DNA of 40,973 nucleotides from Victivallaceae bacterium (GTDB taxonomy: Bacteria; Verrucomicrobiota; Lentisphaeria; Victivallales; Victivallaceae), in the NCBI GenBank assembly GCA_041674645.1, contig JBAYVM010000001.1:1-40973 (forward strand), written 5' to 3'. The notes beneath the pieces are model-generated. The model was given only the letters and a program-made list of their open reading frames with translations, did no database searches and was not told the DNA's origin. Every line of letters begins with the position of its first letter. The first letter of the stretch is position 1. The position numbers and the translations under genes were made by a program. This document shows positions 2,259-35,267 of the stretch, piece after piece.

Positions 2259-2777
2259 TTACTTTAAAAGTTTATCGCTGAAACAGGTGCCAGTTTTTGA
2301 ATATTGAGATGTCCAGCCATTACAAGTTAGTGCCACACTAATCGTCATTTTATAGGTTTGTCTTAAATACACATGCCCCCCAATTGATTCTTTAGTAGGA
2401 TTGCCATCTTTTGCAATTCCTGCGCTAGCACTAGCGCTACCATCATAGTTGACATTATTTTTATCTTTAACGGTAAAAGGACATGTTGTCATACTGCCGG
2501 TAGTCCAGCCGATAAATTTTCCACTGTCGAAAGTAACTGCAAATTCAGCTGTCCCGCTCATAGTCGGCGACGTGACAGTTTGCCATCCGGAATCCTGAAG
2601 GCTTTCTATATATTCGACGAATAATAATACTGGCGAAATGCTAAAAGATAAATTTCCTCTTTCTTGCCAGTCACAAAAATCCACGTCTTTTTCAGAAAAA
2701 AATGGTTTATTGTTGTTACATGAAGTTTGAAATAGTAAAAACAATAGAGAAACTAACATGAAGTAAAATATTTTCAT
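2259..2777 (-). CDS. Hypothetical lipoprotein (172 aa)
   Basis: Hydrophobic N-terminus ending in a lipobox-like LFQTSC. GGGGAG lies upstream of the ATG. No recognisable domain. Confidence 0.55.
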   Translation of the reverse strand: MKIFYFMLVSLLFLLFQTSCNNNKPFFSEKDVDFCDWQERGNLSFSISPVLLFVEYIESLQDSGWQTVTSPTMSGTAEFAVTFDSGKFIGWTTGSMTTCPFTVKDKNNVNYDGSASASAGIAKDGNPTKESIGGHVYLRQTYKMTISVALTCNGWTSQYSKTGTCFSDKLLK

Positions 2778-3036
2778 TTATCACAATTCTCCCCTAAAAT
2801 TTATGCTTTATTGCGCTTACCCCCTTAGCTTGTACCACTTTTTCTAGATTGGTGTAAAAGCTCTGCCTCACTATAGTCATTAGTTCGCGGAATTCAAGTC
2901 CGCCCGTATACCTCCATCCGGCGTTATGTAAAGTGCAATATATCTGCACTAAGCGTGAATTTTAAGTTGTAATATTTTTATTTGCAGCCATTTATAAGAT
3001 TTGCATTGTAATCATGAAGGCTGAAAAATGAAAAGG

Positions 3037-3543
3037 TTAAAGCTTGTCGCCGAGCGTTCCTTTTGTGGCGTTAATTTCCTTGTTCTTGGCTTTTTTTCTA
3101 AGACCAAGCGGTATCCAGCCGGAATTATATCTGTTAACAAGAAAGTAGTTAAATATAACCCAGTCGTCATTTTTTTTCTCTAGCATGGCAATAGCAACAA
3201 AATCATTATTCCCTTTATCATGAATTCCAATATACATATCCTTCATTCTGAGAAAAATCCACTTTGAACCCTTAATCTGGAATCCTTCTGCAGTCATTAT
3301 AATCATTTTTTTATTTAATTTTTCTCCAGGTTCCAGCCATTCATTATCAGACAGGACTGCGCCACCTGAAGTATAATTATTGCGGATATAGGTTGCCGTT
3401 GCCATAACAATCCTGGTTTGGTCAGTATCTCCATCTGTATACAAAAAATTAATATTCTTCCCAAGATGAATATTAAAGACTAAAAGAGTAACTACAATCA
3501 ATAAAACAAATATACCTGCTCCTAGCACAATTTTTGTTCCCAT
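3037..3543 (-). CDS. Hypothetical N-terminally membrane-anchored protein (168 aa from the internal ATG)
   Basis: The ORF runs to 3567, but the ATG at 3543 (MGTKIVLGAGIFVLLIVV...) has a GGGGAG Shine-Dalgarno 8 nt upstream. One N-terminal TM helix. No recognisable domain. Confidence 0.55.
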   Translation of the reverse strand: MGTKIVLGAGIFVLLIVVTLLVFNIHLGKNINFLYTDGDTDQTRIVMATATYIRNNYTSGGAVLSDNEWLEPGEKLNKKMIIMTAEGFQIKGSKWIFLRMKDMYIGIHDKGNNDFVAIAMLEKKNDDWVIFNYFLVNRYNSGWIPLGLRKKAKNKEINATKGTLGDKL

Positions 3544-3594
3544 AACCAATACTCCCCTGTTATGCATTCCTATTCATAATTTCAAGCGCCTGCC

Positions 3595-4404
3595 TTATTT
3601 CGTTACGGGCTCTTTTCTATTTCCAGCTTTATCTTTTGGCGCACGTTTTTCTCTATTATTGATCTCTTGCTGAACAGCGTTTAATTGTTGCAATGAGCCT
3701 TGTCCTCGTTGAAACTCTTTCTCTAATCTATTCTTTAACTGTAATAATTCAGAGAGAGGCATGTCAGATAACGAAGTCTTATTAAGTTCTCGTCTTGCCG
3801 CCTGATCGTTAATATCTACTAATGTAAATTGACAAAATACTTCCATTGATAGAAACCTGATTGATTTGTCTGATAAATGGTTAGGTTGTAGTACCGTGAA
3901 TTTTTGGTAAAACATTTTATCGTCTGGCAGACTTTCGCCACTTTGTGATTGCTCGTAAAACTTCATGAATAACATTTCTTTGTTGATTAGAAAAGACTGC
4001 TTTTGATATGTTGCCAAAATTAGTTCATATGATGATGGAATATTGTGATTGAATCTCCAAGAGTTACTGAATCTCTCACAAGGAATAACATCGATTCTTA
4101 TTGTATATTTCCCCGTAGGATTATGCTGTAAGAATAAATAAATATAACATTCTGTCTGTGACTTTCCCAACACATGCTCCCAGAGTGGCAATTTAACAGG
4201 AACTCCAGAATCATTGATTTTAAAAGTGATTTTTACTTTTTTATCTTTTTCCAACATTCCAGAATATTTTAAATGCCATTTCAAACTCAATGCAAGCGGG
4301 TTATAATAGTCTGGAATATAGTCAACGACAACGTTGGGTTCGGCATGAATATTGCAGAACAATCCGACAAACAACATTATAGATAAAAATGTGCTTTTTT
4401 TCAT
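3595..4404 (-). CDS. Hypothetical secreted protein (269 aa)
   Basis: Signal-peptide-like N-terminus MKKSTFLSIMLFVGLFCNIHAEP and a charged Lys/Glu-rich C-terminal tail. No recognisable domain. Confidence 0.6.
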   Translation of the reverse strand: MKKSTFLSIMLFVGLFCNIHAEPNVVVDYIPDYYNPLALSLKWHLKYSGMLEKDKKVKITFKINDSGVPVKLPLWEHVLGKSQTECYIYLFLQHNPTGKYTIRIDVIPCERFSNSWRFNHNIPSSYELILATYQKQSFLINKEMLFMKFYEQSQSGESLPDDKMFYQKFTVLQPNHLSDKSIRFLSMEVFCQFTLVDINDQAARRELNKTSLSDMPLSELLQLKNRLEKEFQRGQGSLQQLNAVQQEINNREKRAPKDKAGNRKEPVTK

Positions 4405-4493
4405 TTCTTCTTCTCTTTTGATAAAACCGTTTGTAAATCACTTCTTTTGACCAACGAAAACACTAAATCTGCCATGGACATTCTCAACGAACG

Positions 4494-4865
4494 CTAATGC
4501 TGTTTCGGTAAGACTTTATTCCTTTCCCATATGACGCTTCTTTCTTTACCCAACAATAGTTCTGATATGTCTTTCGAAATTAGGATTTCTTCTTTAAAGC
4601 TTCCATTATGCTTTAAAGCAATTTCTATTAACATAATAATTTTATCTTTTTCTTTCTGGTAAGTTATTTTGTTTACACCATATGCGCTGTGTCCGCACAA
4701 TCCAGATATTACCAGATAATCATTGTTATCTCTTTGGTTTTCAACGACTTTAAAATTGAAAATATATTTTCTTTCCAAAATCATATCATTAATACTGCAT
4801 CCACTTAACAACATTCCACCAATGATGATTATAATTTGATATATTCTTCTATTCAACAACGCCAT
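4494..4865 (-). CDS. Hypothetical lipoprotein (123 aa)
   Basis: Lipobox LLSGC after a hydrophobic N-terminus. GGAG lies ~10 nt upstream of the ATG. Ends in TAG. Confidence 0.5.
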   Translation of the reverse strand: MALLNRRIYQIIIIIGGMLLSGCSINDMILERKYIFNFKVVENQRDNNDYLVISGLCGHSAYGVNKITYQKEKDKIIMLIEIALKHNGSFKEEILISKDISELLLGKERSVIWERNKVLPKQH

Positions 4866-4996
4866 GATTACTTTCTCCGTTTCTCAATGAAATCATCCGC
4901 AAGCCCCTGAATTTAACCAACGAAACCACAAACGCTAAAGTTTTGTCCCGAATTGCTGTCGCTCAGGGATTCTCCGAAAGCCGCCATTGTCACGCC

Positions 4997-5272
4997 CTAT
5001 TGCTTACCATTTTCAGTGCCTGACCTAAAAGCCCTTATTTCCCGCCATAGAAAAATCACAAAGACAATAATGACGACATAAACAATTAAGATACTCCGAC
5101 CAAGTAAATCACAAAGATTTACTGTAATCAAATTTCCGCCTTGTAAAAATTTAAGGTCTGAATCTCCAGTTCGGAGAAAATGTCGAAAACACAATTGGAA
5201 ATTAGAGGGGAACTGCACCACTCCCAATACAATGCCAGCCAGAAAAAGAGTTATATTTTTATTTTTCATCAT
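4997..5272 (-). CDS. Small hypothetical membrane protein (91 aa)
   Basis: Two hydrophobic segments, a GAGG just upstream of the ATG, and a 14-nt overlap with the preceding gene. Confidence 0.4.
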   Translation of the reverse strand: MMKNKNITLFLAGIVLGVVQFPSNFQLCFRHFLRTGDSDLKFLQGGNLITVNLCDLLGRSILIVYVVIIVFVIFLWREIRAFRSGTENGKQ

Positions 5273-5504
5273 TGCCTCTACATTTTTTGTTCATCAGCAG
5301 AGCAATAATTGTAAGCGGCCAGATAAAAATGAGAATGAAGCAGGCAATACCCAACATTCTCGCCAAAGGAACAATATTTTCCGGAGAAAAATTAAACCAT
5401 AAAACCAAATAATTCAGTATGCTTCCAGCCACAACTCCGAAAACGAACCAAAATCCATTTAAGAGCTTTGCTCTCACTTCCGTTCTGTGAATTGACTCAG
5501 ACAT
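5259..5504 (-). CDS. Small hypothetical membrane protein (81 aa)
   Basis: Two predicted TM helices. Strong GGGAGGGAAGA-ATG Shine-Dalgarno context at 5505-5517. Confidence 0.5.
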   Translation of the reverse strand: MSESIHRTEVRAKLLNGFWFVFGVVAGSILNYLVLWFNFSPENIVPLARMLGIACFILIFIWPLTIIALLMNKKCRGNDEK

Positions 5505-6082
5505 TCTTCCCTCCCGGTTTGAATATAATTTGTATTATTTTATGAAATTCCTTACGCGATGTTATCTCACTGTTTTATATCTAATATTATTCGAAGACTT
5601 GGTCTTGTAAGTGTTCCTTATATTTTATCTCAAATGAAAACGGAACCGTTTCCGCTCCCACCCGATTAATTCCAGACCTCGGGATAGCCAAGCGGGTCGG
5701 AGGTCGGCTATTTGCCCTGCTCTGCGCGATAGTTTCGGAACATAAACGCATAGACAAGTCCTCCAAAGTAAAGCAATTTCACAGATTTATTTTACACTGG
5801 GAAAAAAGGTTATCAACACGATTAGAGAAAATATGGATTAATTTTCTCCGGTGTAGCGTTCTCTGCGAAAACATCTTCCTGTTAGTGCGGTTTGGCAGTC
5901 GCCTGGATGCCAAATTTGGAAAAACGCCCCGTAGAGCGAGGTCACTACACCGTTTTGCCGTCGGTTTAAGGCTAAACCTGACGCTACTTTAACAACGAAA
6001 TGCTTTTTGCGCTCGGAGATTGCAAGCTACATATCAGTTTCGCTGAAAAATGAAGAACGGCACAGGAGCGTCAAAAGTTTGA

Positions 6083-7885
6083 TCAGCCCTGGTAACGGGG
6101 GAGGCGAATAGTAAAAATGCTGCCTCTGCCGAGTGTGCTTGCAACGCTTACTGAACCGCGATGCAGTTGAGCAATGTGTTTCACAATGGACAGCCCAAGG
6201 CCGGTGCCGCCGAGTTTGCGGCTGCGAGCCTTGTCCACGCGGTAAAAGCGTTCAAACAACCGGGGAAGATGTTCCGACGCGATGCCGCAGCCGTTGTCCG
6301 CCACCTTGATCAATATGTCATTGCCGTCAGTATTGATGCTGGCGGTGATAACGCTGTCATCACCGCTGTATTTTATGGCATTTTCAATCAAATTGACTAC
6401 GGCTTGTTCCAGCAGTTGACAATCGCCCTGCACTTTGAGGTTGTCGTCTTTTTCGAAATTGAGTTCAATCTTCCGGCCTTCCGCCCGTTCTTTGCACAAT
6501 TCAATGGCTGTGCCGACCGGACCGGAAAGTTTGAGCACGGTGAAATCTCTTTCCGAAGCGCGGGTTTTCTGTTCCAGGCCGGATAAACTTAAAATATCTT
6601 TGACCAGCGCGTTCAGACGGTCAGTGTGTTTGGTGATGATATTCATGAATTTTTCGGCGTTTTCCGGTTCATTAATCGCGCCTTCCTGAAGGGTTTCCAC
6701 CGCTCCGCGAATAACCGTCAACGGAGTTTTTATTTCATGGGAAACGTCGGCAATGAAATCCCGCCGGAAGTTTTCCAGTTTTCTAATCTGAGTAAAATCT
6801 GACAGCACAATCAGGGTGCCGAAAATCTGATTCTGATTCATTTTCAGCACGGTTCCGCGCGCCCGGATGGAACGTTCCTGAACATTAAATATGGTTACTT
6901 CGGTTTCAAGCGTCTTTTTTTCGCGAAAAATCTGTTCCACGAAATCCTGCAGCGGACGATTGCGCACCACGCCGTAGAAAGAGAGTCCGACGGCATTTTC
7001 CGGCAGGTCGAACATTATTAAAGCGGCGTTGTTGATGTCCAGAATGTTTCCATCCAGCCCCAGGGCGATAACGCCTTCGGTCATACTGGAAAATATTGCG
7101 TCCCGTTCATTTTTTTCCCGGGTAATCTCATCAATGCGGTATTTCAACTGTTCCGCCATATTGCTGAGGGAAAGCGCCAGTTCACGAATTGCTCCTTTTT
7201 CCGGGATTGGCAGTTTAATATCCAAATTTCCGGCGGCAATTCTGGCGGCATTAAATTTCAGGCTTTCAATCGGTTTACTGATGCCGCGGACAATAGAGTA
7301 ACTCAGTCCGCTGGTAACCAACGCCACCAGCAAACCGACAATAATTATATCCCGCCGGGCCTGCCGGATAACATCATCAATTGATTTTAAGGAAACCGCC
7401 GTACGAAGCACATAAGCTTTTCCGTCAACCTCAATCGGAATTGCCGTATAAACCATTCGGGTGGAAAGCGTCGCGCTGTAGCGCACAGAGCTGCCGGGAA
7501 TTTTCTCGCCAAACGCCGTCGCGATTTCCGGACGTTTCAAATGATTACCCATTTTTTCCGCGCTTTCCTGGGAGTCAAACAAAACTTTCCCGTCAGCGGC
7601 GATAAGCGTTATCCGCGTGTCAATTAATTTGTCAATCCGGTTGCCAAACTCATCAATGGCGTTAACATCAGGACGTTCCAGCAGTTTTCTAACTTCCGGC
7701 TCAAGCAGGTGACTTCTAATCAGCAACTCATTCTGAACTCGTTGCAAATAAATATCTTCCATTGACGTGGACTGATGCCAGATAAAACCCAGCAGCGATA
7801 TCGCCACGGAAAAAATCAGTATCGGAAAAAACTGAAATGCGTCGTTTCTCATGCTTCCTCTGCTTGTAAGGCCTCTATTTGCCAT
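6083..7885 (-). CDS. PhoR-like sensor histidine kinase (TM-sensor-TM, HAMP, PAS, HisKA, HATPase_c)
   Basis: H-box DVSHEIKTPLT, N-box NLIENAIKYS, DNGCGI, and RFYRVDKARSRKLGGTGLGLSIVKH. The ATG at 7885 overlaps the TGA of the upstream regulator (TGATG). A TTG at 7888 is an alternative start. Confidence 0.9.
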   Translation of the reverse strand: MANRGLTSRGSMRNDAFQFFPILIFSVAISLLGFIWHQSTSMEDIYLQRVQNELLIRSHLLEPEVRKLLERPDVNAIDEFGNRIDKLIDTRITLIAADGKVLFDSQESAEKMGNHLKRPEIATAFGEKIPGSSVRYSATLSTRMVYTAIPIEVDGKAYVLRTAVSLKSIDDVIRQARRDIIIVGLLVALVTSGLSYSIVRGISKPIESLKFNAARIAAGNLDIKLPIPEKGAIRELALSLSNMAEQLKYRIDEITREKNERDAIFSSMTEGVIALGLDGNILDINNAALIMFDLPENAVGLSFYGVVRNRPLQDFVEQIFREKKTLETEVTIFNVQERSIRARGTVLKMNQNQIFGTLIVLSDFTQIRKLENFRRDFIADVSHEIKTPLTVIRGAVETLQEGAINEPENAEKFMNIITKHTDRLNALVKDILSLSGLEQKTRASERDFTVLKLSGPVGTAIELCKERAEGRKIELNFEKDDNLKVQGDCQLLEQAVVNLIENAIKYSGDDSVITASINTDGNDILIKVADNGCGIASEHLPRLFERFYRVDKARSRKLGGTGLGLSIVKHIAQLHRGSVSVASTLGRGSIFTIRLPRYQG

Positions 7886-8583
7886 CAATAATTTTCATTA
7901 AACCGGTATCCGACTCCGCGCACGGTATCAATCATATTTTCAGCCTCGCCAAGCTTTTTGCGGAGACCGACAATCTGAACATCCACCGCCCGTTCAGTAA
8001 CCGGATAATCATCGCCTTTGACTTCATTTACAATCTGATTCCGGGTATAAACCCAACCTGGTCTTCTGGCTAACATGTATAATATCTCAAATTCAGAAAA
8101 GGTCAATCCCAGCGTTTTATTATTCAAAGTCGCTTCGCGTTTGCTGCGATTCATAAGCAACGGACCGCGCTTGACTATTTCCGGCATTTCCTCCTGGTCG
8201 CCATACTTGCTGCGTCTCATGACGGACTTGATTCTGGCCACCAGGACTTTGGTGCTGAAAGGCTTGGCCATATAATCATCGGCGCCCATTTCCAGCCCGA
8301 TAATCATGTCCATCTCTTCGCTCTTCGCGGTAAGCATAATCACCGGAATCTGTTCCGTTTCCGGATTACTTTTCAAATGCCGGCAGACCGCCAGGCCGTC
8401 AATGCCCGGCAACATCAAATCCAGCAGAATCACGTCCGGAGAGAATTCCGCTACCGCTTTTAAACCTTTTTCGCCGCTGTCCACAATCTTAAGCTGATCG
8501 TAACCTTCTTTCTTCAGGTTGTAACGAATCAGCTCCTGAATGTCTTCCTCGTCTTCGATAATCAGTATTTTTTCTTTCGCCAT
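7885..8583 (-). CDS. OmpR/PhoB-family response regulator
   Basis: Receiver domain (ILIIEDEEDI, DVILLDLMLPGIDG, LTAK) plus a winged-helix C-terminus (LTFSEFEILYMLA, VDVQIVGLRKKL, TVRGVGYRF). Start placed at MAKEKILIIED (8583) rather than the ORF-track start at 8610. Confidence 0.9.
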   Translation of the reverse strand: MAKEKILIIEDEEDIQELIRYNLKKEGYDQLKIVDSGEKGLKAVAEFSPDVILLDLMLPGIDGLAVCRHLKSNPETEQIPVIMLTAKSEEMDMIIGLEMGADDYMAKPFSTKVLVARIKSVMRRSKYGDQEEMPEIVKRGPLLMNRSKREATLNNKTLGLTFSEFEILYMLARRPGWVYTRNQIVNEVKGDDYPVTERAVDVQIVGLRKKLGEAENMIDTVRGVGYRFNENY

Positions 8584-8816
8584 AATCTTCATTCCTGTAT
8601 AATTGAACATTTTATTTACTTTACTCTAATATAATAATCCCGGTTTTTTAGATTCAGATGACACAAATGTTAGAATAAGATTAAAACTGCTTTTATTTTG
8701 TGCTCACGTCGTTTATTCATCTATTAAAATCAATGAATTGCGACATCCGGCGCCACATTGAAAACGCCAAATAAAAATTCCCTCATACGCGCCCTTCAGA
8801 CTAATGGGTTGAATTC

Positions 8817-8845
8817 TTGCATTTTCTCATTCATTATGTTATATT
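8817..8845 (+). promoter_or_regulatory. Sigma-70-like promoter candidate (TTGCAT - 17 nt - TATATT)
   Basis: -35 TTGCAT at 8817-8822 and -10 TATATT at 8840-8845 with an exact 17-nt spacer, ~45 nt upstream of the ATG at 8889. Confidence 0.3.
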
Positions 8846-8888
8846 CGGACATCGTGAGTTAAATAACTTAAAAGAATGGAGTCAAACC

Positions 8889-9515
8889 ATGAAATCAAAA
8901 ATCACCATCATTTCTCTCCTGGCTGCCGGAATCGCATTTTCTACAATCGCTGCCGACACCGCGCCAACCAAAGAAGCAACCACGACACCAGCTCAGGAAA
9001 AAGTTATTCCGGCAAAAGTTCAATGCGCCAGAATAGACATTGACGGTAACAAAGACCAAATCAATCTGAAACCAGTCAAGGGAATGGCCAACGCCAGCTG
9101 GTTGAAGGAAAAAGATCTCGTTACAAAATCCCTTTATTCCTACTCAAAACCGTTGACTGGCGAAGCTTGGGAAGATATGGAAGTATCGTTTATTCCAGAC
9201 AAAGACGGAATCGTGATTTTAAAACTCATGAGCAGGTGGTATAAGCCCAAAGGTGAAAAAAAGAATATTCCGATATTGGTTGAATTCGATGAAGTTCAGC
9301 TTACCGGGGCCGAATTGAAAAATGGCGGGTTTGAACAGCTTGATGAAAAAGGCAAAGTTGCTGACTGGAATTTGAAAGGCGATTTAATTAAAGGCAGAGC
9401 TCAAGCCGGCGACAACTCCATCAAAGTATGCACCAAGAATCTGGCTTCTCAGGCTATAAAGGTCACGAAAGATCAGCAAGTAACCATCAAAGCAAAAGTT
9501 AAAAAAGCAGAATAA
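8889..9515 (+). CDS. Hypothetical secreted protein (208 aa)
   Basis: Start moved to MKSKITIISLLAAGIAFSTIAADTA (signal peptide, GGAG 8 nt upstream). The C-terminal NGGFE...W segment is reminiscent of carbohydrate-binding-module-like beta-sandwich proteins (weak). Confidence 0.6.
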   Translation: MKSKITIISLLAAGIAFSTIAADTAPTKEATTTPAQEKVIPAKVQCARIDIDGNKDQINLKPVKGMANASWLKEKDLVTKSLYSYSKPLTGEAWEDMEVSFIPDKDGIVILKLMSRWYKPKGEKKNIPILVEFDEVQLTGAELKNGGFEQLDEKGKVADWNLKGDLIKGRAQAGDNSIKVCTKNLASQAIKVTKDQQVTIKAKVKKAE

Positions 9516-9537
9516 CGTTTTATTGCTGTCACACTTG

Positions 9538-9575
9538 GACTCTTACTCGTAACATCATGGGTAAGAGTCTTTTTT
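9538..9575 (+). terminator. Rho-independent terminator
   Basis: Stem GACTCTTAC (9538-9546) pairs with GTAAGAGTC (9561-9569), followed by a T-run at 9570-9575, 23 nt after the stop codon. Confidence 0.7.
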
Positions 9576-9863
9576 CGTAACCTTCACTGTCTTCGCAATC
9601 TAAAGTTTAAAAATCTCACGCCTATATTGCCGCCGTGGAATAGAAAATTTGCGGTGAAAAACATTCCTGCAGGGCTGTATTGAAAGGCCAAAAATCAGCG
9701 TTCATGACCTGCAAGATACCCTAATTCCAAGACAAGAATTCATCACAAATCGAATTCATTATAATTTCTCCTTGTATGATTACAAAAAAACAAAAACAAA
9801 GCTATATTTAAGGCTGAATTTTAAAATATAAATAACGGCGGGCCGCCGGAGAAAGGATAAAAT

Positions 9864-10559
9864 ATGTTTTTTGATCCAATGTATTTGCTGTTTGCATTGC
9901 CCGGATTGCTATTTGCATTGTACGCTTCATTTATGACCAAAACGACGTTTTCGAAATATTCCCGCGTCATGTCTTCCACCGGAATCAGCGGTGCGGAAGC
10001 GGCGGCAAGACTGCTTAATAACGCCGGAATCCGGGATGTCGGCATAGAAATGGCAAACGGTTTTCTCAGTGATCACTATGATCCTTCCGCCAAAATGTTA
10101 CGACTGTCTGCTGAAGTGTATAACGGGCATAGTTTGTCGTCAATCGGGGTCGCCTGCCACGAAGCCGGCCATGCGATTCAGGATGCCGAACACTATGCGC
10201 CGCTGGGCTTGCGAAGCGCCATGGTTCCGTTGACCAGTATTTCGTCACCATTGTCGTATGGGTTCATCCTGCTCGGATTCTTTATGAATTCTCCACAACT
10301 TATTCTGCTTGGCGCGATAATTTTCAGCGCAGCAGTACTGTTTTCCATTATCACCCTGCCGGTCGAATACAATGCCAGCGCCCGGGCTAAAAAACTGATG
10401 GTTTCAGCTGGAATAGTTTCTTCCCGTGAAGCCGAAGATGCCGGAGCCGTGCTTAATGCCGCCTTTATGACTTATGTCGCCGCCGCCGTCAGCGCCGTGC
10501 TCACTCTGTTATACTATCTATGGCGAGCTGGAATATTCGGCGGCAGAAACAACGACTAA
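9864..10559 (+). CDS. YugP-type membrane zinc metallopeptidase (Zn_peptidase_2 family)
   Basis: HEAGHAIQ (HExxH) motif, the LSDHYDP...LRLS motif, and hydrophobic N- and C-terminal segments. GGAGAAAGGA lies upstream of the ATG. Confidence 0.8.
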   Translation: MFFDPMYLLFALPGLLFALYASFMTKTTFSKYSRVMSSTGISGAEAAARLLNNAGIRDVGIEMANGFLSDHYDPSAKMLRLSAEVYNGHSLSSIGVACHEAGHAIQDAEHYAPLGLRSAMVPLTSISSPLSYGFILLGFFMNSPQLILLGAIIFSAAVLFSIITLPVEYNASARAKKLMVSAGIVSSREAEDAGAVLNAAFMTYVAAAVSAVLTLLYYLWRAGIFGGRNND

Positions 10560-12994: not shown

Positions 12995-13012
12995 ACTTTT
13001 CTTACGCTTAAA

Positions 13013-13044
13013 GGAATCCGTCAGACGACGGATTCCTTTTTTTT
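13013..13044. terminator. Intrinsic terminator between convergent glnN and the helicase gene (clear for +, weaker for -)
   Basis: Stem GGAATCCGTC (13013-13022), loop AGAC, stem GACGGATTCC (13027-13036), then T8 (13037-13044). On the minus strand the same hairpin is followed only by TTTAAG. Confidence 0.8.
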
Positions 13045-13070: not shown

Positions 13071-16000
13071 TCAATGCTTTGCAATAAAATCCTTCCAATT
13101 TTTATTTTCTGCAATAAAACTAAAAATCTGTTCAGACTTATATTCCGGATGTCCAATAGAGTCTTTTTGCTGTTGAATATAAAGTTCAGTCCATAAGGGA
13201 TGAGTAATAATGGTCTTGCTCTCAGGAATAACAATTGGATCTCGCAATGATTTGGGAATATAATCCGGAATATAATTCGTAACAAATCGCTCCCAATGCG
13301 GCAAATCAAAACCTATATGTAATTTTGCATCTTGAGCCAGGTAAATCATATCAAGCCCCAAACGCCAATTCAAATATTCATGATAATACAAATTGCTATA
13401 ATCTTTAATGCAGTCGTAACAGGCAAGAAAACAATTATGATTATCAAACATTTTTTTTACTTTTGAATCTGATTCCATGCTATAAACATCCAATAAATGC
13501 TTGCGTATCAATTCTGAATTTTGAAATAGATAATTACAAAAGCCAGAACCGTTTTCCATCGTATCGGAAAAGAAAATTTCTCCCGTTTGTAATTTTTTAT
13601 CGTCAAAAACTACTCGATAATCAACATTTAATTCTCCAAGTCCTGTGTCTATAAAATCACACGCTGATTTTCTTAAGAGATATCCCATTGATATATATGC
13701 TGAGCGAACATTGGAATTCATAGGGTTTAAATCAATATTTTCAGGGGTTTCAATAAATCTGAAGCACAATATTCCAGTAGTTTTACTTGCTAATAAGCCT
13801 GCCTGCTGGATTTTTTCTGGGTTAATTTTTGCTTCACTTCCATTTTTATTATGAATCGCAGGAACTACCCAGGCGCCGGAATCACGATCTTCTGCAAAAT
13901 CAAATAAATTCCCCCCGTTATCATTTAATAAATGTAATTGAGCTTCATTTGAAGAATGAACGGCTAGATTTGTTTGTGCAACTTTCTCGAATTTTTCACT
14001 TGATACTTTGTACTCAAGTTGTGACAAATAATTTTGAGCTACCCAATCACCACCGCCAGTATAATCTTTTGGACGTCCCTGCATGTTTACAGAAAATCCT
14101 AATGGAGTAAAGGTTGTTATAGTTCCGTGTGACTCATCGCTACATACAGGGCATTTATATTTTTCATGTCGCTCTGTAAGAGGTACTATATAGCCACATT
14201 TACATGAAAATATATTCCTAATATAACCTCGCCCGTCTTTGGCGACAATCTGTGCTTGATCTCTTCGCCAATCCACTAAACCTGTAATAGTATATAAAAA
14301 TTTATCTTTAACTATTTGGCTCCCCGGGGCAAAAGAATTAATTGCTTTCTCCAAATCCCGGTCAACAATATTATCCTTAGCATGAAGCTCCTTAGGTTTT
14401 GCCAAGTACAAGCTCCTGGTTTTAGTCGGAAAACCAAACATAGGCAATACACCAGCATTAGCCAAACGTTCGCTTAGGTCGGGTTGCGGAAATTCCTGCC
14501 CACGAGAAACAAAGTCCGAAATTTTATTGCATAGTTCGTGACTAACAAAAGATCTGATGTTTTCCCTTGTGGAGGACGATATGTTTACGCCAAACGTAAC
14601 AACATTAATTACCGGGTTAAGGTCCTCTGAATGAAGCTTAATCCACGTTTCTACATCTGAACAATTATCTTTCCAAGAGCTGGCATATCCAAATTCTCCA
14701 TGAACAGAATTAGATGATGATTCTACAACCAAATGGCAAAAAGCCCGCCGTAAAATCTCCTTGCTCACCATACGCTGAATGATTGTTTTGTTGTCAATAT
14801 CAAGATAAAGTGGGCTGGGCGGAGCAGAAATCATTCTTTCAGGTTCAATGAAGTGCGCAAAATCATGTGAATTATTCCGCGCAATGGACAAAGCAAATGC
14901 CCATGCGTTTCCGCGACGGCCGGCACGCCCAATCCTTTGTTGGTAGTTAAAACGCTGAGGCGGAATATTCCCAAGCATGACTGTATTCAATGCCCCTATA
15001 TCTACACCTGCTTCCATTGTTGTTGTAACACTCAAAAGATCAATGGAATATGTATCTTTGGCAATTTCTTCTTCATCTAAAAATACATCTTGAAAATAGC
15101 GTTGTCGCTGAATTGAATCAAGCCGGTCAGTTTGACCTGTTAATTCTTCACAATGCAGACGGACACGGTTATAACCATTGCGAGCTATAAAGCTATAGTA
15201 ATTGTCATCTATCGGAATGTTTGACGCCATATCTCCATCAGACTTAAGTTTTTGAGGACAGTTTATGCAATGACCATTAGAAGGCTGAAGGTGTAATGTT
15301 CTGCATTGCGGACAACGCCAAACTTTATCGTGTTCAAGATCAAGCAAAGTAATAATTAAATTTTTCCCTGTTATAAGAAGTGGGTCTTCTGATAATGTAT
15401 TGTCTGAACACAGTTTATCCTTTATCTCCGTCAGTTCTGGCCGCTTAACTCCTACTGCGGAAAAATATTTACTAATATCTCTTGGTATTCCGCTAGAAGA
15501 TATTTGTTCATTGCCCCAAACTCTCTTTTTTTCTCCTAACATTCTAATAAAAGTATTGATATGTTGATTGTCCGGTTCTTTTTGATAACGCACCACTCCC
15601 AATCCTAATGCCTCAAATGACCGCCTTGGCGCGGGGAAAAGAACATTTAAAATTTCTTTTGATAATTCCGCTTGAAGACTTGATTTATAATCATTTAATT
15701 CCTGAGAGGGCTGGATATTGTTGTTAAAATAACAATCTGTCCAACGTAATGATTTATCGTAATTTGAATAAAAACTTGGCTTTGGTCCAGCGGGACAAAT
15801 CCCTAGTTTTATTAATTCCTTAGTAATTGGAATTGACAGTTCAGATATAAAAACTACACCTAAACGCTTTTTTATTTGTTCAATGGCTTTGCTATCAGAG
15901 TCTACTAAAGCGAGATCTATTGTTTCTTCCATTATTTCTAATTTTTTAAGGGCAGAGTAAATATTTCGCTCATCTTTACGATTAAGATTAGAGATATCTT

Positions 16001-18113
16001 CAAGTTTTGTAATTATTTCTTGATGTTGTTTTTTTATTTCTTTTACAGATTGAAAAACCAATTGTCGCATTAAATCTTTAAAATGGTCAAGTTCAATTCC
16101 AGCAGATAATTTTGCCGCTCCTTGACGACTGTCAGAAAAAAGAATTAATTTTTCGTGGTTCTCAGAGGATTTTTGCAATGCCGAATAAAGAGAATCAGCC
16201 ATAAGTTGGTTAACTTTCTGCACACCGGTCCCATGTTTATAAAACGGCGCCATCTGTTTGACAGATACCTTTTCTGCTTCGCATGATGGACAATATGCAG
16301 GATATTTATCATCTTGATTATCCTTACCATCACATGTTAAATAATCACCTCTGTGCCTAGTTCCTGTATTTTCAATTATCCCTGTAAATGGGTTAAACGT
16401 ACACCTGTTCCAAGCTCCGTAATCTTGAATTCCAAGTGATTCTTGGATTGGCAAAATAAATTTGGGGGGATGAGATTCATTTTCTCCTGGAGGAATTGCA
16501 TCAATAAATTCACCGTTGCGATCGAAGCCTTGAAAACAAATTTCCCCGCAAGTTCGGCAAATGGCCAAAGGGTAAACCTTGCAACGACATTTACAACGTT
16601 TTATAGGCGAGAGATACAATTTCCCAATCTTTCGACCGTCCCATCTATACTCTTCATTTACTTGATTACATTCTGGATTGCTACAAGCATACAACATATC
16701 TATATTACGAAAGAAATAATGTATCCGCAACGGCATTAATGTTTTCCCATTCTCTCCAGCAATGGCGATGATGCGCAAAAGTACTTGAAATGCTTTTTTT
16801 GCATTTTCTGAGTCCTCCCCAAATATCCATTCAACAAGTTCTGATAATTTTCTAGGGTTATTTTTACCGTTTCCGTAAAATGTTTCTCGTAAAATTTTGT
16901 CCAAAGAATATTTTTTAGCCATTTTTACTGAAATATCATGTGTAACTTCTTCCGTAAATAATTCAAGAAGAGGCAAAACTGGGACTTTTTTAATGTTCAT
17001 TTCCGGTTGTTCAATTACTGGATTCGAGATAATTTCAAATTTATCCAGCTTGCAACCAAAAAATTGTTCTATAAAATCATGATTGTTATCTGAAAGGGAA
17101 GCGCTTGTTGCCAGAATTCTAACCTGTTTTGAATCGGGAGTCAGGCCAAGGCGATTAAGCAATAACCGCAAAAGTTGAGAAACTTCAGTTCCTGGAGTTC
17201 CTCTGTAGGTGTGCAACTCATCTACGACTAAGTAAAATATATTATCAGAGGACTCCTCCAGCCATTCTTTCGTTTCTTCAAAAATTGACGCCTCGCGTTT
17301 ACGCATCAACATTATATTAAGCATAGAATAGTTTGTAATCAAAATATCAGGCGGAGTACTTAATATTTGCTTACGTGTCCAATATTCTGCCGAATCGTTA
17401 TCAGTATTTATGTAGCGTGATATGTATTCTTCCTGTTCTTCTTGGCTTTTAGAACCAAATGATTCTTTGATTTTTTTCCAAGCTTTTTTTAAATCTTTTG
17501 CCGACCTTTCAGTTTCTTCTTTTGGGGTTACCCCAGTATAGCGAGCAAATGATATATTTTGACCAGAACACTTGTCATTGAACCACGCACGAGCTTCAGT
17601 AGAATTGCAGGTACGTCGCAAGCGTCCAAGCTGGTCCTCAACCAGGGCATTTAAAGGATAAAGAATTATTGCTTTTACCGCATGATGTTGCTTGCCAAGC
17701 TTATACGTTTTGTAATTTTTTATGAGATGGGCAAAAAGCGGCAGCATAAAACACTCGGTTTTTCCTGACCCTGTTCCAGTTGTTACTACAATATTTTTCC
17801 CGGAACAAGTAGCGAGTATTGCCTGTTCCTGGTGTTGATACAAATACTCATTGGGGAATAAACCAAGTTTTGCAAAATCACTAAATCCGGCAGGCAATTC
17901 CGCTATGTCTGAGAGTTTAGCTCCTTGCTTATAAGTTGGCATCAGTTCGAAATAGGGTTGATGCCACAATGCGTCTATCGTATCTTTACTGACATCATTA
18001 AAAAGGTTTTCCCGTTCTTGGTCAAGATGTATATCTGAAAGCGGAATACCCGTTTTAAGGTAACGTAAGTAATTGTTTTTCAAGTCATTCCACATCGTGA
18101 TAGGATTAGTCAT
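13071..18113 (-). CDS. Giant SF2 (DEAH-type) helicase fused to a C-terminal DUF1998/MrfA-type Zn-binding module; DruE-like architecture (1680 aa)
   Basis: Walker A GTGSGKT (17757-17777), DELH (17211-17222), [14 protein letters not shown] (14910-14939) and the C-terminal [10 protein letters not shown]...Y.H..L.W (13410-13439). AAGGAG lies 9 nt upstream of the ATG, inside the end of the previous gene. Confidence 0.85.
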
Positions 18114-18114
18114 G

Positions 18115-19029
18115 TCAATCAGCTCCTTCGATTATTTTATTGCAAAAAATCCTCTTTAATTCCTGCATGTGTGTCTTTTCTACACCATCGTAAGTTTTTG
18201 AGTTAATCGTAAATTTTGAAAACATTTGGTTCAAAAATAGAACACGTCCTATTATAAATGGAGGCTCAATATCAAATTTCAACGTTTTGTTGTTGCGAGA
18301 ATAATGCGCAACTGGAAGGTTATTGTCAATACAATGCATTACCTTTGCCCAAAAACTATCATTCACATCTTTTCCCAATTCATAATGTTTCCGTTCATTA
18401 AAATACACTCTTGAGGAATAGATTTTTTCTGACAATCGATATAAGCCCGGTTGTGGTGTCGCAACGCCACGGGACAACCACCGATCTTTGCCGGTTGGCG
18501 AATAGATCTGCTTGTAATCAGCTAAATTACATCCTTCCTTTTCAGAAGAAAATATACCAGGATTGCACACCGGAAAAGATTTTAACAACTTTGTTGTTGA
18601 CGGATTATGAACAATAGGCAAGCCTTCTCCTTGTTCGTCCAGAGATGTTTTCCAACGAACGATTACAGAAAGCTGTTCAAAGTTTGGTTCAATTTTATCT
18701 TCTATAATTTCGTCTACATTGATTTGGTTTTTAAGGTTTTCTGTAAGATTAATGCCAATCCATGAACGTTCTTGATCTGAATCCGAGTAAAATACCATAG
18801 CGGGCGACAATTGCCATACTGTTTTCCCTGAAGATAATCCGCATTCGACCAAACCAGACCGAACTAATGGATAAAAATAGAGATATAAACTATAAGACTC
18901 ATTTACTCTTTTTACGGAAAAGACACACGCATTACAGATATCACGCAACTTTTCATGCCGCACTGGAGATTTTTGGGTACCAAGCCACGCCAAAAGTAAA
19001 TTTTGTATTTTTATGATTTTTCTGTCCAT
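18115..19029 (-). CDS. Hypothetical protein, operon partner 3 (304 aa), no recognisable domain
   Basis: Long ORF with a 3-nt gap to the upstream gene and a 1-nt gap to the helicase ATG. AGGA lies upstream of the ATG. Confidence 0.7.
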
Positions 19030-19032
19030 GAT

Positions 19033-20787
19033 TTATCCTGCCGGGAAAAAATAATCCTCATTAATTCCCACATCTTGTATATCATCAAAAGTCTCCCAAA
19101 GACCTTCTTTATTCCATTCATCATAAATATTGATAGCCTTCCAACTTTTTGCAATATGAGTTAAAAGCCCCAAGTGGGAATTATCCTCAGATTCAGTAGC
19201 GGCAGACGAAACAATCACTCGCAAATTATCAGGATATTGCGGATTTGACGCATAAGGAATTAGTTTTGTTTTGTGGTCAAAAACATTCCACAAGGGCTTA
19301 CCCCAACATTCCGGCAATGCAATATTGAAGTTTTCGATTAAAAGGAAATGCCAAATATCCAAATTGTCGTGTGCCGATTCCCAAATGCTCTGCAATGATT
19401 CTTCCCAAAAATCTTTAAACGTTATCCACTTTGGCGATGGCTGACATAGTTGATAAATAGAATTTCCCAAAACAGAAGCCAGAAACACGCCTGTTCTAAT
19501 GTCACTTGTAAGAAAACACCGTTCGTAGGATAGATTCTTAAGTAACACTTGGTTCATAAAATCACACGGCAAGTCAAGCAAATTATTAACGGACTTCATA
19601 AACTCTGTTCTATTTTTTGCGTTGACCATCTCCGCATTTGGCTTTTTCCTTATAATTTCAATTGGAAAAGACTCAACTCTATTAACCGGAGCTTGAACGT
19701 TGCCGGCAATCCCCACCTGTATTTTTATTGATTCAATAAGTTCTTCGCGCCGATTAACCAAATTTTGGTATTTCTCTTCCAGCTTACCCAGCTCTTCATT
19801 TTTTTCTTTGATTTGTCCTTTTAATTTAGTCAGTTCTTTTTTGACTTCTTCCTTCTCGGCTTCATGGCGTTTTTTAAATTTAGATAATTCATCCTCCAAC
19901 GCTTTCTTTTCTTCTGCGACACCAGCCCGTTTCGCTTCAACTGAGGCCTTTTCTTTTGATAATACAATGTCTATATTCTTTTTTACTGCTTCGTCAATGA
20001 CCGACTTAAATACTGGGAGAGCTTGAAAGTTTTGGATTTCATTCCAGTCAAATGCAAATGAACTCAGGCAATGCTTAACTCTAACAAAACGCTCCTTAGA
20101 TAATACTTCATCGTCCTTGACTGTTTCGACATCTTTAATTCCTGCTTGGATTTTTTTCAATTCGTCGGGGCTTAATAGATTATTCAGCTTCCCCTTAAAC
20201 CACTCTTTGAGTTGGCTTGCCGACATACAGTCTACTTCAAGTTTATGACCCTTGCTTGAAAATTCTGAAAAATCTTCGACAAGATAGGTTGTCCCCTCGA
20301 ATAAGACGGTGTCGTAATTTGGTCGATACGACCATCCTTTTACCTCTTTTCCTTTACATGGTTCAGAATTAGTTGACCAGACAGGGCCACAAATACATTG
20401 AGTAGATCCCTGTTTTCTAAAAAAGAACACGTGCTCTTTTTTATCAGAAATTTGCGTTCGGTTAAAAATTTTATCTTGATTAAATTCTAATACACGTGGA
20501 CAAACCCATATTTTACCGCCATCTTTTTTAGAAGGAAGAACATATAAATCTTTTCCGTCTGGCAAATCCGATTCATGCGAATTTTCTGAATAGGAAAATC
20601 TGACAATATCATGTTCTGCTATATTTGGAAAATCGCTACCAAGATTCGGAGCGAATACTCGTCCTATAGTTGGAAAGTGATTTTTTAATTCACTATTGCT
20701 CCAATACCCGTTTTTTGAGTAAAATAACACTTCGATACGAGATTGCTTTCCATTTATAAAAATAATTTTACCGATTGCAGATTCCAT
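19033..20787 (-). CDS. Hypothetical protein, operon partner 2 (584 aa): N-terminal beta-rich region, central coiled coil, C-terminal degenerate P-loop-NTPase-like region
   Basis: AAGGAGG lies 7 nt upstream of the ATG. Heptad-like K/E-rich stretch at aa ~278-355 (19723-19956). C-terminal FLLIENFNIALPECWGKPLW...NLRVIVSS resembles the McrB/MoxR Walker-B-to-sensor layout without catalytic residues (inference). Confidence 0.75.
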   Translation of the reverse strand: MESAIGKIIFINGKQSRIEVLFYSKNGYWSNSELKNHFPTIGRVFAPNLGSDFPNIAEHDIVRFSYSENSHESDLPDGKDLYVLPSKKDGGKIWVCPRVLEFNQDKIFNRTQISDKKEHVFFFRKQGSTQCICGPVWSTNSEPCKGKEVKGWSYRPNYDTVLFEGTTYLVEDFSEFSSKGHKLEVDCMSASQLKEWFKGKLNNLLSPDELKKIQAGIKDVETVKDDEVLSKERFVRVKHCLSSFAFDWNEIQNFQALPVFKSVIDEAVKKNIDIVLSKEKASVEAKRAGVAEEKKALEDELSKFKKRHEAEKEEVKKELTKLKGQIKEKNEELGKLEEKYQNLVNRREELIESIKIQVGIAGNVQAPVNRVESFPIEIIRKKPNAEMVNAKNRTEFMKSVNNLLDLPCDFMNQVLLKNLSYERCFLTSDIRTGVFLASVLGNSIYQLCQPSPKWITFKDFWEESLQSIWESAHDNLDIWHFLLIENFNIALPECWGKPLWNVFDHKTKLIPYASNPQYPDNLRVIVSSAATESEDNSHLGLLTHIAKSWKAINIYDEWNKEGLWETFDDIQDVGINEDYFFPAG

Positions 20788-22423
20788 TATTATGCCTCCT
20801 TAAAACTTTATGAATATAATTTTCATTGTCAAAAACTTTTGTAGTGTCCCTCGTTACAAGCTCCATCCATTGACGAACAAGATTGCCCGGCTGCATTTTC
20901 TTGGTCTGTGCGTTCAATAGCTCAATCGGAATTTTTGAAAAATCAAGACCTCTTATATAAGTGCTTTCGCTTGTCACGCGATATCCATTTTCAGTAAGCT
21001 CCCATCCTGTTTTAGCGTCATAATCTTCACATGCTATTGGCGAGGTTATCTTAAAATGGATCAATGGCATATCAGCACTGTATTGCAAAAAATATCTCCC
21101 CGGCGGAAGATGCATTAAACGCTGCTCAGATATTTCCAATACTTTCCACTCTTTTCCATAATCGAACTTTAGGTTAGCCAAGCGGACTGTTAGCGCTGAA
21201 TAATTTTCTGCCTCTAATATTGGGCCAACACCTTCCATCCATTCCCGATAGCCTAATTTTATGCCGCCTATTAAATGAATTGCTGGAGCTTGCTTGAACC
21301 TATCCGGAAAACGAATTTCCAGTTCAGTAATTTGAGCGGTATCCAGTGGATATAATTTCAGCTTCCCATAACAGTACGGTTGCTGTTCAAAGAAGTTCTT
21401 TAAATCATTAAAAAATGGAGTCTCATTTAAATATGCGAGAACGTATCTTTGATTGGATTTGCTGCTGATACATTTTTCTGATATTAAATTCCAATCATTC
21501 CAATTTATAGAATCTTGAATAAAAAAAATCCCTTTTTCAAGAAACGCGACATCTTTAATCAAGTCATTATTACAACGAAACTCAGGTTCGGAGTCTTCTC
21601 CTCCAGTCCAATACATTGTATATTCTTTTCCCAGCTTTATGTTTGGTGATGGACGATGTTTATCATCATACAGACCATCCCAATTCAAATTCAAATAAGC
21701 ATAATACATCTGTTTTAAGACGCCCTCTTTGCGACCTTTATCTATATTCCGCCATTTTTGATAAATTCCCGGGGGAAAACTGCCTTGCCTATCCAGTACT
21801 ATTTTTTTAAAAACATCGAAATCAATTTCATCGTCTTGTGCTAAACCACATTTGTGAAAAAATGAACCTAACGAATCAATATCTTTTTTGTGTAGCAAGG
21901 CTAAACTCAATGGATATTGAACATAGCGATGGCCAACTGAACTATGGGATAGATAAATAGAAAAATTATTCTTTTTGCACCATCTTTCAAAACAATCGTA
22001 AATATTCTCCTGCGCATCTCGATATTTTGCTTGTAATTTATTATCGTCTGAAAGAGAAAGTATTTTTCTCAATCGCGGATTATAGGCAGCAGAAGAACAT
22101 AGTTCATCATTTTGCCTGCTGGATGCCGCTAAAAGTTGAATAGCGACAAGGCCTAAATACTGCGGAATGTGGCTTTCTGAAATACATAATTTATGCCATT
22201 CAACTTCCCTCAAAAAAGTGCAGGCCTCGGTAAAATATTCCTGATTTTCTATTGCTTGAATATCAATAAAAATTGACGCTACATTTGAATAATTGTTTAT
22301 ATTTGGTTTTAAAAAAACCTCATAAACCCAATCATTAAACTTCGTATAATTTTTAAACTCCAAAGACATATTATTGCTATCTGTTAAACTTTGCTTGAAA
22401 ACTTCTTTAGCGAGATATGGCAA
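20768..22423 (-). CDS. Hypothetical protein, operon partner 1 (551 aa), no recognisable domain; start codon uncertain
   Basis: Long ORF overlapping the next gene by 20 nt. The first in-frame start is TTG at 22423 and the first ATG is at 22369 (MSLEFKNY). Confidence 0.65.
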   Translation of the reverse strand: MPYLAKEVFKQSLTDSNNMSLEFKNYTKFNDWVYEVFLKPNINNYSNVASIFIDIQAIENQEYFTEACTFLREVEWHKLCISESHIPQYLGLVAIQLLAASSRQNDELCSSAAYNPRLRKILSLSDDNKLQAKYRDAQENIYDCFERWCKKNNFSIYLSHSSVGHRYVQYPLSLALLHKKDIDSLGSFFHKCGLAQDDEIDFDVFKKIVLDRQGSFPPGIYQKWRNIDKGRKEGVLKQMYYAYLNLNWDGLYDDKHRPSPNIKLGKEYTMYWTGGEDSEPEFRCNNDLIKDVAFLEKGIFFIQDSINWNDWNLISEKCISSKSNQRYVLAYLNETPFFNDLKNFFEQQPYCYGKLKLYPLDTAQITELEIRFPDRFKQAPAIHLIGGIKLGYREWMEGVGPILEAENYSALTVRLANLKFDYGKEWKVLEISEQRLMHLPPGRYFLQYSADMPLIHFKITSPIACEDYDAKTGWELTENGYRVTSESTYIRGLDFSKIPIELLNAQTKKMQPGNLVRQWMELVTRDTTKVFDNENYIHKVLRRHNNGICNR

Positions 22424-22479
22424 AATATTAATGTCGGCTAATATATTTATATTGAGCCAGTAACTCCTTCTAATGGGTT

Positions 22480-22507
22480 ACATTAGCATTTCACAAAAGC
22501 TATTCAA
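22480..22507 (-). promoter_or_regulatory. Weak sigma-70-like promoter candidate for the four-gene operon
   Basis: On the minus strand, TTGAAT (22507-22502) - 16 nt - TAATGT (22485-22480), just upstream of an AAGGAG at 22469-22464. Confidence 0.2.
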
Positions 22508-22547
22508 TATTATTTCCTTGTGTTGATTCAAAAATTATACTTTTAGT

Positions 22548-35232: not shown

Positions 35233-35267
35233 AATTATATTTAAGACAGCAGAATTTATTTATAAAT

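Follow-up and report, generated by a model that had tools for sequence, protein, structure and literature searches.

A predicted Druantia-family operon with a type-IV-like gene order in a Victivallaceae bacterium

This study concerns a block of four genes, on the minus strand at 13071-22423, in a 40,973-nucleotide (nt) stretch of DNA from a Victivallaceae bacterium (GenBank assembly GCA_041674645.1, contig JBAYVM010000001.1, positions 1 to 40,973; hereafter "the window"). Based on comparisons of the encoded proteins, P1 to P4, we conclude that the locus is probably a four-gene anti-phage defence operon of the Druantia family, type-IV-like, with the gene order DruF-DruC'-DruL-DruE, and that a defence role is the best reading of it. 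An initial annotation of the same DNA had described a DruE-like helicase with three unassignable partners, and hence a candidate new defence system, adding that significant profile matches of the partners to DruB, DruC, and DruD would instead make it a known Druantia type I without druA. Matches to Druantia proteins were found: PADLOC, HHalign, and Foldseek together relate P1 to DruF, P3 to DruL, and P2 to DruC-like proteins, which by that yardstick places the operon in a known Druantia lineage. It is a diverged branch of known Druantia, only partly recognized by the PADLOC models, and not a new kind of defence.

Gene layout and the DruE helicase

The open reading frames (ORFs) were re-derived, and the four co-directional ORFs are all intact, with coordinates identical to those first reported (551, 584, 304, and 1680 amino acids, aa). 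The junctions, a 20-nt overlap followed by gaps of 3 nt and then 1 nt, were also as described, and so were the Shine-Dalgarno (SD)-like sequences AAGGAGG, AGGA, and AAGGAG just upstream of the ATG codons of genes 2, 3, and 4, respectively. The proposal that the four genes form one unit gains further weight from the conservation of the same cassette across relatives. One correction applies to gene 1. Its longest ORF (551 aa) begins at TTG 22423, and translation from an ATG in the same frame at 22369 would yield 533 aa; since P1 homologues are 527-539 aa long and cover 96% of the 551-aa form, this ATG is probably the true start. A sigma-70-like match in the region (TTAAGA-16-TATAAT, 22561-22534) is a consensus match only, and as promoter-like sites are no commoner there than in shuffled sequence (33 found versus 33.5 expected), we claim no promoter. 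At the other end of the operon, a GC-rich hairpin between the convergent glnA-III and druE genes is probably a terminator.

On its sequence, it is beyond doubt that P4 is DruE, an SF2 helicase of the YprA/MrfA family that carries an MZB (DUF1998) cysteine cluster at its C-terminus. Searches with the PADLOC hidden Markov models (HMMs) gave 1265 bits for DruE4, 1224 and 1181 bits for DruE2 (the 1181-bit match being full length), and 685 bits for DruE1, with E-values from 0 to 6.5e-206. The DruE3 HMMs matched the N-terminal part only, and the DrmA, DpdJ, and BrxH models gave only weak local matches (50-53 bits for DrmA). Matches in the PDB included two solved Druantia helicases, 9wae at E 2.5e-114 and 9tu7, the type III-A DruE of E. 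coli, at E 3e-52, as well as YprA (6znp, E 9e-13), and those in Pfam were DEAD, Helicase_C, and a weak MZB (PF09369, E 0.0017, under the gathering score). The PADLOC DruE models thus uphold the earlier view of this giant as a DruE-type fusion of helicase and DUF1998 modules. Its four motif positions were reproduced exactly, and motifs I, II, and VI and the cysteine motif are all intact. The chain ends 112 aa past the cysteine motif, and the protein therefore has none of the PLD domains found in type III DruE. No DruE in 185,579 reference genomes exceeds 37% identity to it.

The partner proteins

The statement that the partners carry no motif that can be placed in a family stood for sequence searches of Pfam, NCBIfam, and the PDB; it failed for PADLOC in the case of P1, and for profile-profile and fold comparisons. 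For the profile-profile comparison, the three genes upstream of each DruE were treated as slots X, Y, and Z, tabulated across loci, and compared by HHalign using small alignments of 9-24 sequences. The X-Y-Z-DruE layout is nearly universal and falls into three sequence groups. PADLOC itself names the proteins of some loci: in L049, which is type-I-like, Y is DruC1 and Z is DruD1, and in L020, X is DruF4 (1.8e-35), Y is DruC1 (3.4e-15), and Z is DruL4 (2e-25). L021 represents a three-gene form, DruF-DruL-DruE. All six cross-slot HHalign controls gave 0.5% or less.

P1 is a predicted DruF-like protein. It matched PADLOC DruF2/DruF4 with an E-value of 4.9e-17, in aa 71-210 only (~130 aa), and the X-slot profile of its clade aligned with the DruF group at 99.5% (E 3.8e-23, 437 columns). 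Against two DruB-slot families the same profile reached 0.3% and 0.1%, and no PADLOC DruB match was found. Searches of Pfam, NCBIfam, and PDB sequences with P1, including profiles from broadened DruF-like alignments, returned nothing.

P3 appears to be DruL-like, by remote homology only. The Z-slot profile aligned over its full length with the PADLOC-confirmed DruL group (98.1%, E 1e-13, 266 columns), and weakly with DruD (8%, E 0.004, 128 columns). The PADLOC DruL HMMs gave no direct match to P3, PADLOC as a whole yielding nothing significant for it even at E<=10, and nothing was found in Pfam, NCBIfam, or PDB sequence searches, including those with broadened DruL-like alignments. The predicted structure (pLDDT, the predicted local distance difference test score, 89; predicted template modelling score 0.86) has an N-terminal winged helix-turn-helix (wHTH), which alone was matched by Foldseek in the PDB and BFVD (E>0.07); the remaining ~230 residues, an alpha/beta domain, had no structural match in either. 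An McrC-like reading of P3 was dropped, as neither a DUF2357 nor a PD-(D/E)xK signal was present.

The DruL protein of L020 (298 aa) matches positions 768-999 of the long PADLOC DruF2 models (PDLC00016 and PDLC00023), which are therefore DruF-DruL fusions, and because DruF and DruL are fused in some relatives, P1 and P3 may well interact and act together. The fusion also suggests a core design shared across the multigene types. Deep alignments of DruF-like and DruL-like proteins conserve almost only G, P, W, and L, together with one Asp (83%) and one Arg (96%), and no nuclease- or methylase-type constellation of residues is conserved in them. Among the relatives with such a fusion is L028, which encodes, directly upstream of DruE (6832-9972), a 1046-aa protein in which DruF-like and DruL-like regions are combined.

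P2 is predicted to be a degenerate protein of the McrB/CnuB type that is related to DruC. Sequence searches of Pfam, NCBIfam, and the PDB yielded coiled-coil noise only, and PADLOC gave nothing significant even at E<=10 (DruG was a coiled-coil match only, E 0.05). By HHalign, the Y-slot profile matched the DruC1-positive group of L019, L020, and L022 at 96.4% (E 1.4e-9, 113 columns) and the type-I-like DruC group at 88% (E 3.2e-6, 205 C-terminal columns). The AlphaFold model (pLDDT 79.7) contains an 86-residue helix (aa 260-345). Foldseek related its C-terminal domain to the McrB AAA+ module (6hz4_D and 6ut6_D; probability 1.00, E 2-3e-3) and to other AAA+ modules, and its N-terminus to exosome Csl4-type OB/S1 subunits. 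This agrees with the published layout of CnuB, namely a CSD-like OB domain, a coiled coil, and a GTPase (PMC11090510), and with the report of CnuB (McrB-like) homologues in Druantia I/II that are inactivated and have an extended coiled coil (PMC12458937). No Walker A motif was found in any Y-slot protein across all three groups. A Walker-B-like strand followed by "(E/D)xhN" is kept in these proteins (LLIENFN in P2) and is reminiscent of the DEINR of McrB. As the dead P-loop is common to every Y-slot protein in three clades, it is ancestral and not a sign of recent decay.

The partner families are small. In a collection of 5.8 billion proteins, P1, P2, and P3 formed 14, 20, and 8 clusters at 90% identity, respectively; the clusters are almost all metagenomic, and the sole names attached to them are "hypothetical protein", in three clusters. 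An exhaustive profile search with P3 gave 123 clusters at 50% identity in 1.84e9 proteins, all of ~290-300 aa, and a metagenome scan with the P3 profile gave three loci only.

Distribution, origin, and relation to known systems

Wherever the upstream sequence of a relative is long enough, all four genes of the cassette are present in the same order, so that within the data available the three partners always co-occur with the helicase. The four genes thus travel as a unit. The GTDB scan, made with a DruE profile on one genome per species, returned 80 loci, the best being 37% identical. The full cassette is present in L001-L005, 17 GTDB loci, three viral (IMG/VR) contigs, and L120-L125. Profile HMMs of P1, P2, and P3 detected members of each of the three families ahead of DruE in L006 (Paludibacter), L007, L009, L053, L060 (Niastella), and L061, and BLAST clustering with group-level profiles added L010-L013, L041, and L046 (Sphaerochaetaceae, Treponema, Dojkabacteria, and Lachnospiraceae). 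Across phyla, the partner proteins are 35-58% identical. Relatives on plasmids are at most 32% identical, with partners annotated as "hypothetical protein", as on the mobilisable Calothrix plasmid pCAL6303.03.

The genes around the cassette change from one relative to the next, mobile or defence genes being frequent among them. It lies between two insertion sequence copies in L001 (Victivallis sp.), adjoins a resolvase in L002 and L003, and is followed in L120 by a phage integrase and a Mu-type transposase. L004, L005, and L124 have HipBA upstream, and a NERD/SLFN-like helicase and type I restriction-modification genes (HsdR/HsdM) downstream. Three further observations concern these contexts. 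First, the NERD/UvrD/SLFN-like helicase (584-585 aa) directly follows druE with overlapping stop and start codons (L004 17984-19738, L005 15721-17475, and L124 12982-14739), and may be a fifth, accessory component of one sub-branch. Second, in L120 and in L121-L123 (different samples) the cassette is downstream of the same block of genes (ABC transporter, Fe-dependent repressor, DUF2325, flavodoxin, DUF3793, and GntR), and the genes between the block and the cassette differ between L120 and L121-L123; the site looks like a variable hotspot. Third, L008 (CAVBBO010000027.1) is labelled Escherichia coli "cleanbin", yet its DruE belongs to this clade of Bacteroidota/Firmicutes type, and the contig has probably been mis-binned. 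A megablast of the window's cassette DNA gave no match in complete E. coli genomes; it used the window's DNA and not that of L008, and so bears on this only indirectly.

The operon is horizontally acquired. It forms a compositional island, with a GC content of 0.366 and a third-position GC content (GC3) of 0.29-0.33, compared with ~0.46 and 0.45-0.48 for the flanking glnA-III, nfo, thiI, and pdxB genes, and it is inserted between the convergent glnA-III (76-nt spacer) and nfo (124-nt spacer). No border repeats of at least 9 nt were found at the cassette edges, and no integrase, tRNA, or Rfam element at the cassette. Nor was an empty insertion site found; an identical Nfo occurs on only one other contig, from the same organism, which also has the cassette. 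Strong SD motifs precede genes 2-4 (18120-18135, 19033-19045, and 20790-20800, minus strand), with none evident ahead of gene 1. The flanking genes are Bacteroidota-like in look (a type III glutamine synthetase, and PhoB/PhoR "Bctds" models among the matches, below cut-off). Bacteroidota make little use of SD sequences, and the motifs in the cassette may be a further mark of its foreign origin.

A neighbour-joining tree of 99 DruE sequences (MAFFT; a quick distance tree without support values, read qualitatively) divided the multigene systems into three clades that mirror the partners which each carries: a type-I-like clade, a DruF/DruL clade, and the X/Y/Z clade of the window. The last, which had no label before, is monophyletic and sister to the DruF/DruL clade (PADLOC type II/IV), and one deep sub-branch of it is made up of the window, L001, L002, and L004. 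One locus, L022, mixes families, having X and Y of the window's clade and Z of the DruL group.

The closest published type is PADLOC type IV, rather than type I minus DruA. Payne et al. (2021, PMC8565338) defined Druantia type IV as DruE, DruF, and the hypothetical DruL without DruM/DruG, and reported it 168 times across 11 phyla. Like it, the window has a DruE of the II/IV kind, a DruF homologue first, a DruL homologue directly upstream of druE, and no DruM/DruG that could be found. Moreover, in the type-IV-like L019, L020, and L022, druF and druL are separated by a DruC-like gene, so that the order of the four genes is that of the window. The published definition, however, has three genes, whereas the window's clade always has four; in addition, the PADLOC DruL models miss P3, and the DruE clade is a separate sister.

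Resemblance to the other types is more limited. The window operon shares a DruC homologue (P2) with type I and has no DruB homologue, and no DruA (DUF4338) gene was found, the upstream sequence being a 124-nt spacer and then nfo. PADLOC and Pfam revealed no DruM cytosine methylase and no significant DruG match, as type II would have. More generally, the earlier finding of no methyltransferase, recognisable nuclease, or DruA-type gene was borne out when the cassette and adjacent genes were searched with PADLOC and Pfam. Types I/II have also been viewed as "Type IV CoCoNuT", with a DruE that has an inactivated Vsr-like C-terminus (Bell et al., 2025, PMC12458937); the supplements of that study cover DruE domains only, and the partners are not described in them. 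Such systems resemble ours in being multigene operons that end in DruE and include an inactivated McrB/CnuB-like coiled-coil protein, unlike ours in having components (DruA, DruB, DruM, DruG) that are absent, or in the case of DruG undetectable, here. With type III (DruH-DruE) the window shares a homologous DruE core, and presumably the same 3'->5' translocase chemistry and need for accessory proteins. In contrast to type III, neither a DruH (~1,100 aa; PADLOC) nor PLD domains in DruE were found, the type III-specific protruding dimerisation subdomain is, according to the type III paper, missing, and there are three accessory proteins instead of one, none recognisably a nuclease.

Beyond Druantia, P2 resembles the CnuB of McrBC/CoCoNuT CnuB-CnuC systems (PMC11090510) in its OB-like N-terminus, coiled coil, and McrB-type AAA+ domain, but its GTPase P-loop is absent, and the next gene product, P3, has no McrC/DUF2357 or PD-(D/E)xK features. 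MrfA/YprA and DISARM DrmA/DrmB share the SF2 helicase and MZB/DUF1998 module. However, unlike MrfAB, the operon has no MrfB/YprB exonuclease gene, and its context varies between genomes; unlike DISARM, it has no DrmC (PLD), DrmD, DrmE, or methylase, and its helicase is a single 1680-aa fusion that contains Druantia-specific insertions.

Four other explanations of the locus were weighed. The best of them, though improbable, is that a type I operon (DruB-DruC-DruD-DruE) has lost druA. The number, order, and sizes of the genes are those of type-I-like loci (~520/650/340/1750 aa), P2 resembles their DruC, and the DruE1 HMM does match P4. Yet P1 bears no likeness to the DruB-slot families (0.1-0.3%) and P3 little to DruD, the two matching DruF and DruL instead; the DruE4/DruE2 scores (1265/1224 bits) are far higher than that of DruE1 (685 bits), and the window's DruE falls outside the type-I-like clade. 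The analogy with druB-druC-druD drawn in the initial annotation is therefore good for position, and for clear homology in the case of DruC only. A marginally less probable explanation, which the initial annotation had preferred, is a new defence system sharing nothing but DruE with Druantia. It would account for P2 and P3 being blank in Pfam, NCBIfam, PDB sequence, and PADLOC DruL/DruC/DruG searches, and for partner families as tiny as 8-20 clusters; it is for the most part refuted by the PADLOC DruF match to P1, by the HHalign results of 99.5%, 98.1%, and 96.4% to DruF, DruL, and DruC-like proteins in the matching slots with clean controls, by the mixed families of the intermediate locus L022, and by a DruE tree that puts the clade inside multigene Druantia.

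It is very unlikely that the operon is a decaying, non-functional Druantia remnant. The ATPase site of P2 is dead, no effector nuclease is visible, and the host lineage is so poorly sampled that purifying selection within the species is not assessable; against decay, the four ORFs are intact and tightly coupled, DruE keeps all its catalytic motifs, the dead P-loop is ancestral, and the partners are conserved across phyla. Scarcely credible is a housekeeping MrfA/YprA-type DNA-repair module with no role in defence, for which the shared helicase-MZB core (6znp) and the adjoining repair gene nfo might speak, given that there is no MrfB-type exonuclease, the composition is foreign, the neighbours differ in every genome, the cassette is found on viral contigs and its relatives on plasmids, and DruE sits in the defence branch and not the repair branch (our tree; PMC12458937).

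Proposed mechanism and other features of the window

Returning to the operon as diverged Druantia, we consider it quite possible, if slightly short of an even chance, that it stands for an unrecognised subtype to which the PADLOC partner models are blind, sampled at ~23 DruE loci in Bacteroidota, Bacillota, Spirochaetota, Lentisphaerota, Patescibacteria, and viral contigs, in which a helicase has three non-enzymatic partners and neither a nuclease nor a methylase. If so, all multigene Druantia (I, II/IV, and this one) would share one ancestral core made of a variable X, a dead McrB/CnuB-like coiled-coil protein, a small Z, and DruE, and nothing more than the action of the helicase and the sensing of DNA structure would be needed for defence.

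Among the Druantia types, only the two-gene type III has been studied mechanistically. There, the accessory protein DruH, an exonuclease, detects and processes forks and recruits or activates DruE. The latter, a 3'->5' translocase under autoinhibition, is loaded at junctions of single- and double-stranded DNA in phage replication intermediates, and the cell is defended directly and not by abortive infection. The PLD domains of this DruE were dispensable for defence in one study and needed for DNA degradation in one study. Type I Druantia has been linked to changes in N6-methyladenine (m6A) without a recognisable methylase.

By analogy, we tentatively propose the following scheme, the details of which are somewhat doubtful. 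DruE would be the only enzyme, an ATP-driven 3'->5' DNA translocase that stays inactive until loaded at single-/double-stranded DNA junctions or forked intermediates of the invader. P1-P2-P3 would form a non-enzymatic sensor/adaptor complex, in which the coiled coil of P2 might serve as a scaffold, its OB-like domain might bind nucleic acid, the wHTH of P3 might bind DNA, and DruF and DruL (P1 and P3) might act jointly. This complex would recognise invader DNA and recruit or de-repress DruE, whose unwinding would either block phage replication directly or expose the DNA to host nucleases, without cell suicide. Because no methylase is present, self would presumably be told from non-self by DNA structure and not by modification.

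Several points weigh against these interpretations. The PADLOC DruL, DruC, and DruG HMMs miss P3 and P2, and so the assignment of these two proteins depends on profile-profile comparison of small alignments and on a Foldseek E-value of ~2e-3. There may be a cryptic enzyme among the partners, two-thirds of P3 having no structural match. The cassette's neighbours in the window are housekeeping genes and not a defence island. The mechanism would be borrowed from type III, whose DruH is an unrelated exonuclease, and the window's DruE has none of the PLD domains that one study found to be needed for DNA degradation. A modification-based mode is also possible, because the m6A changes of type I occur without a recognisable methylase. 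Finally, the literature searched held no experimental work on this clade, nor on PADLOC type IV.

The locus bears on Druantia more widely in several ways. HMM-based tools detect too few of the diverged Druantia, and here they missed two of three partner genes. DruF, DruC, and DruL, formerly split among "types", can share one operon. The compact 9.4-kb version, without a detectable nuclease or methylase, is a handy test of whether a DruE helicase and non-enzymatic adaptors suffice for immunity, and the new partner profiles could improve defence annotation in gut and environmental Bacteroidota-like genomes. The features of the operon and its spacers are listed in Table 1.

Table 1. Coordinates of the genes, predicted domains, motifs, and spacers of the operon in the window
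Feature	Position	Strand	Basis
Gene 1 (P1), DruF-like	20768-22423	-	ORF; PADLOC DruF; HHalign
Gene 2 (P2), DruC-like / inactivated CnuB(McrB)-like, 584 aa	19033-20787	-	Predicted structure; HHalign
Gene 3 (P3), DruL-like, 304 aa	18115-19029	-	Predicted structure; HHalign
Gene 4 (P4), DruE, 1680 aa	13071-18113	-	PADLOC, Pfam, PDB matches
P2 predicted N-terminal beta-rich OB-like domain, aa 1-186	20230-20787	-	Predicted structure and Foldseek
P2 predicted helical/coiled-coil region, aa 190-357	19717-20220	-	Predicted structure
P2 predicted degenerate AAA+ domain (alpha/beta), aa 377-584	19036-19659	-	Predicted structure and Foldseek
P3 predicted N-terminal winged helix, ~aa 1-75	18805-19029	-	Model; Foldseek
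DruE Walker A GTGSGKT, aa 113-119	17757-17777	-	Re-derived
DruE motif II DELH, aa 298-301	17211-17222	-	Re-derived
DruE motif, aa 1059-1068	14910-14939	-	Re-derived
DruE MZB/DUF1998 region, aa 1478-1569	13407-13682	-	Pfam PF09369, weak
Cys motif inside MZB/DUF1998 region of DruE	13410-13439	-	Re-derived
AT-rich 124-nt spacer nfo/gene 1, presumed promoter region	22424-22547	-	Consensus match only
GC-rich 13-bp hairpin in 76-nt spacer of convergent glnA-III/druE, probable terminator	13010-13039	.	T-tail on + strand; stem alone on - strand

Elsewhere in the window, three ORFs of 172, 176, and 269 aa (2259-4404, minus strand) lie in a low-GC region at ~3000-6000 (0.34-0.39), and gave no match in Pfam, PADLOC, or NCBIfam. 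A 392-aa ORF near the end of the window (39745-40923, minus strand) matches the C-terminal part of UvrC only (profile positions ~368-650), while a portion of the "DEDD exonuclease domain-containing protein" models is similar to its first 150 aa. Either this is a UvrC-like protein that lacks the GIY-YIG region normally present at the N-terminus, or its start has been mis-set near the window end. The dnaN (364 aa) and recF (375 aa) genes at 34138-36393 (plus strand), both above the TIGRFAM equivalog cut-offs, lie in the window's lowest-GC stretch, with GC of 0.33/0.32 and GC3 of 0.21/0.26, below even the Druantia island, and a locally positive GC skew. The pair may be acquired, may be a second clamp/RecF pair, or may reflect an assembly join. 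The RecF encoded there also gave a full-length match to the PADLOC "mad3" model (6e-27).

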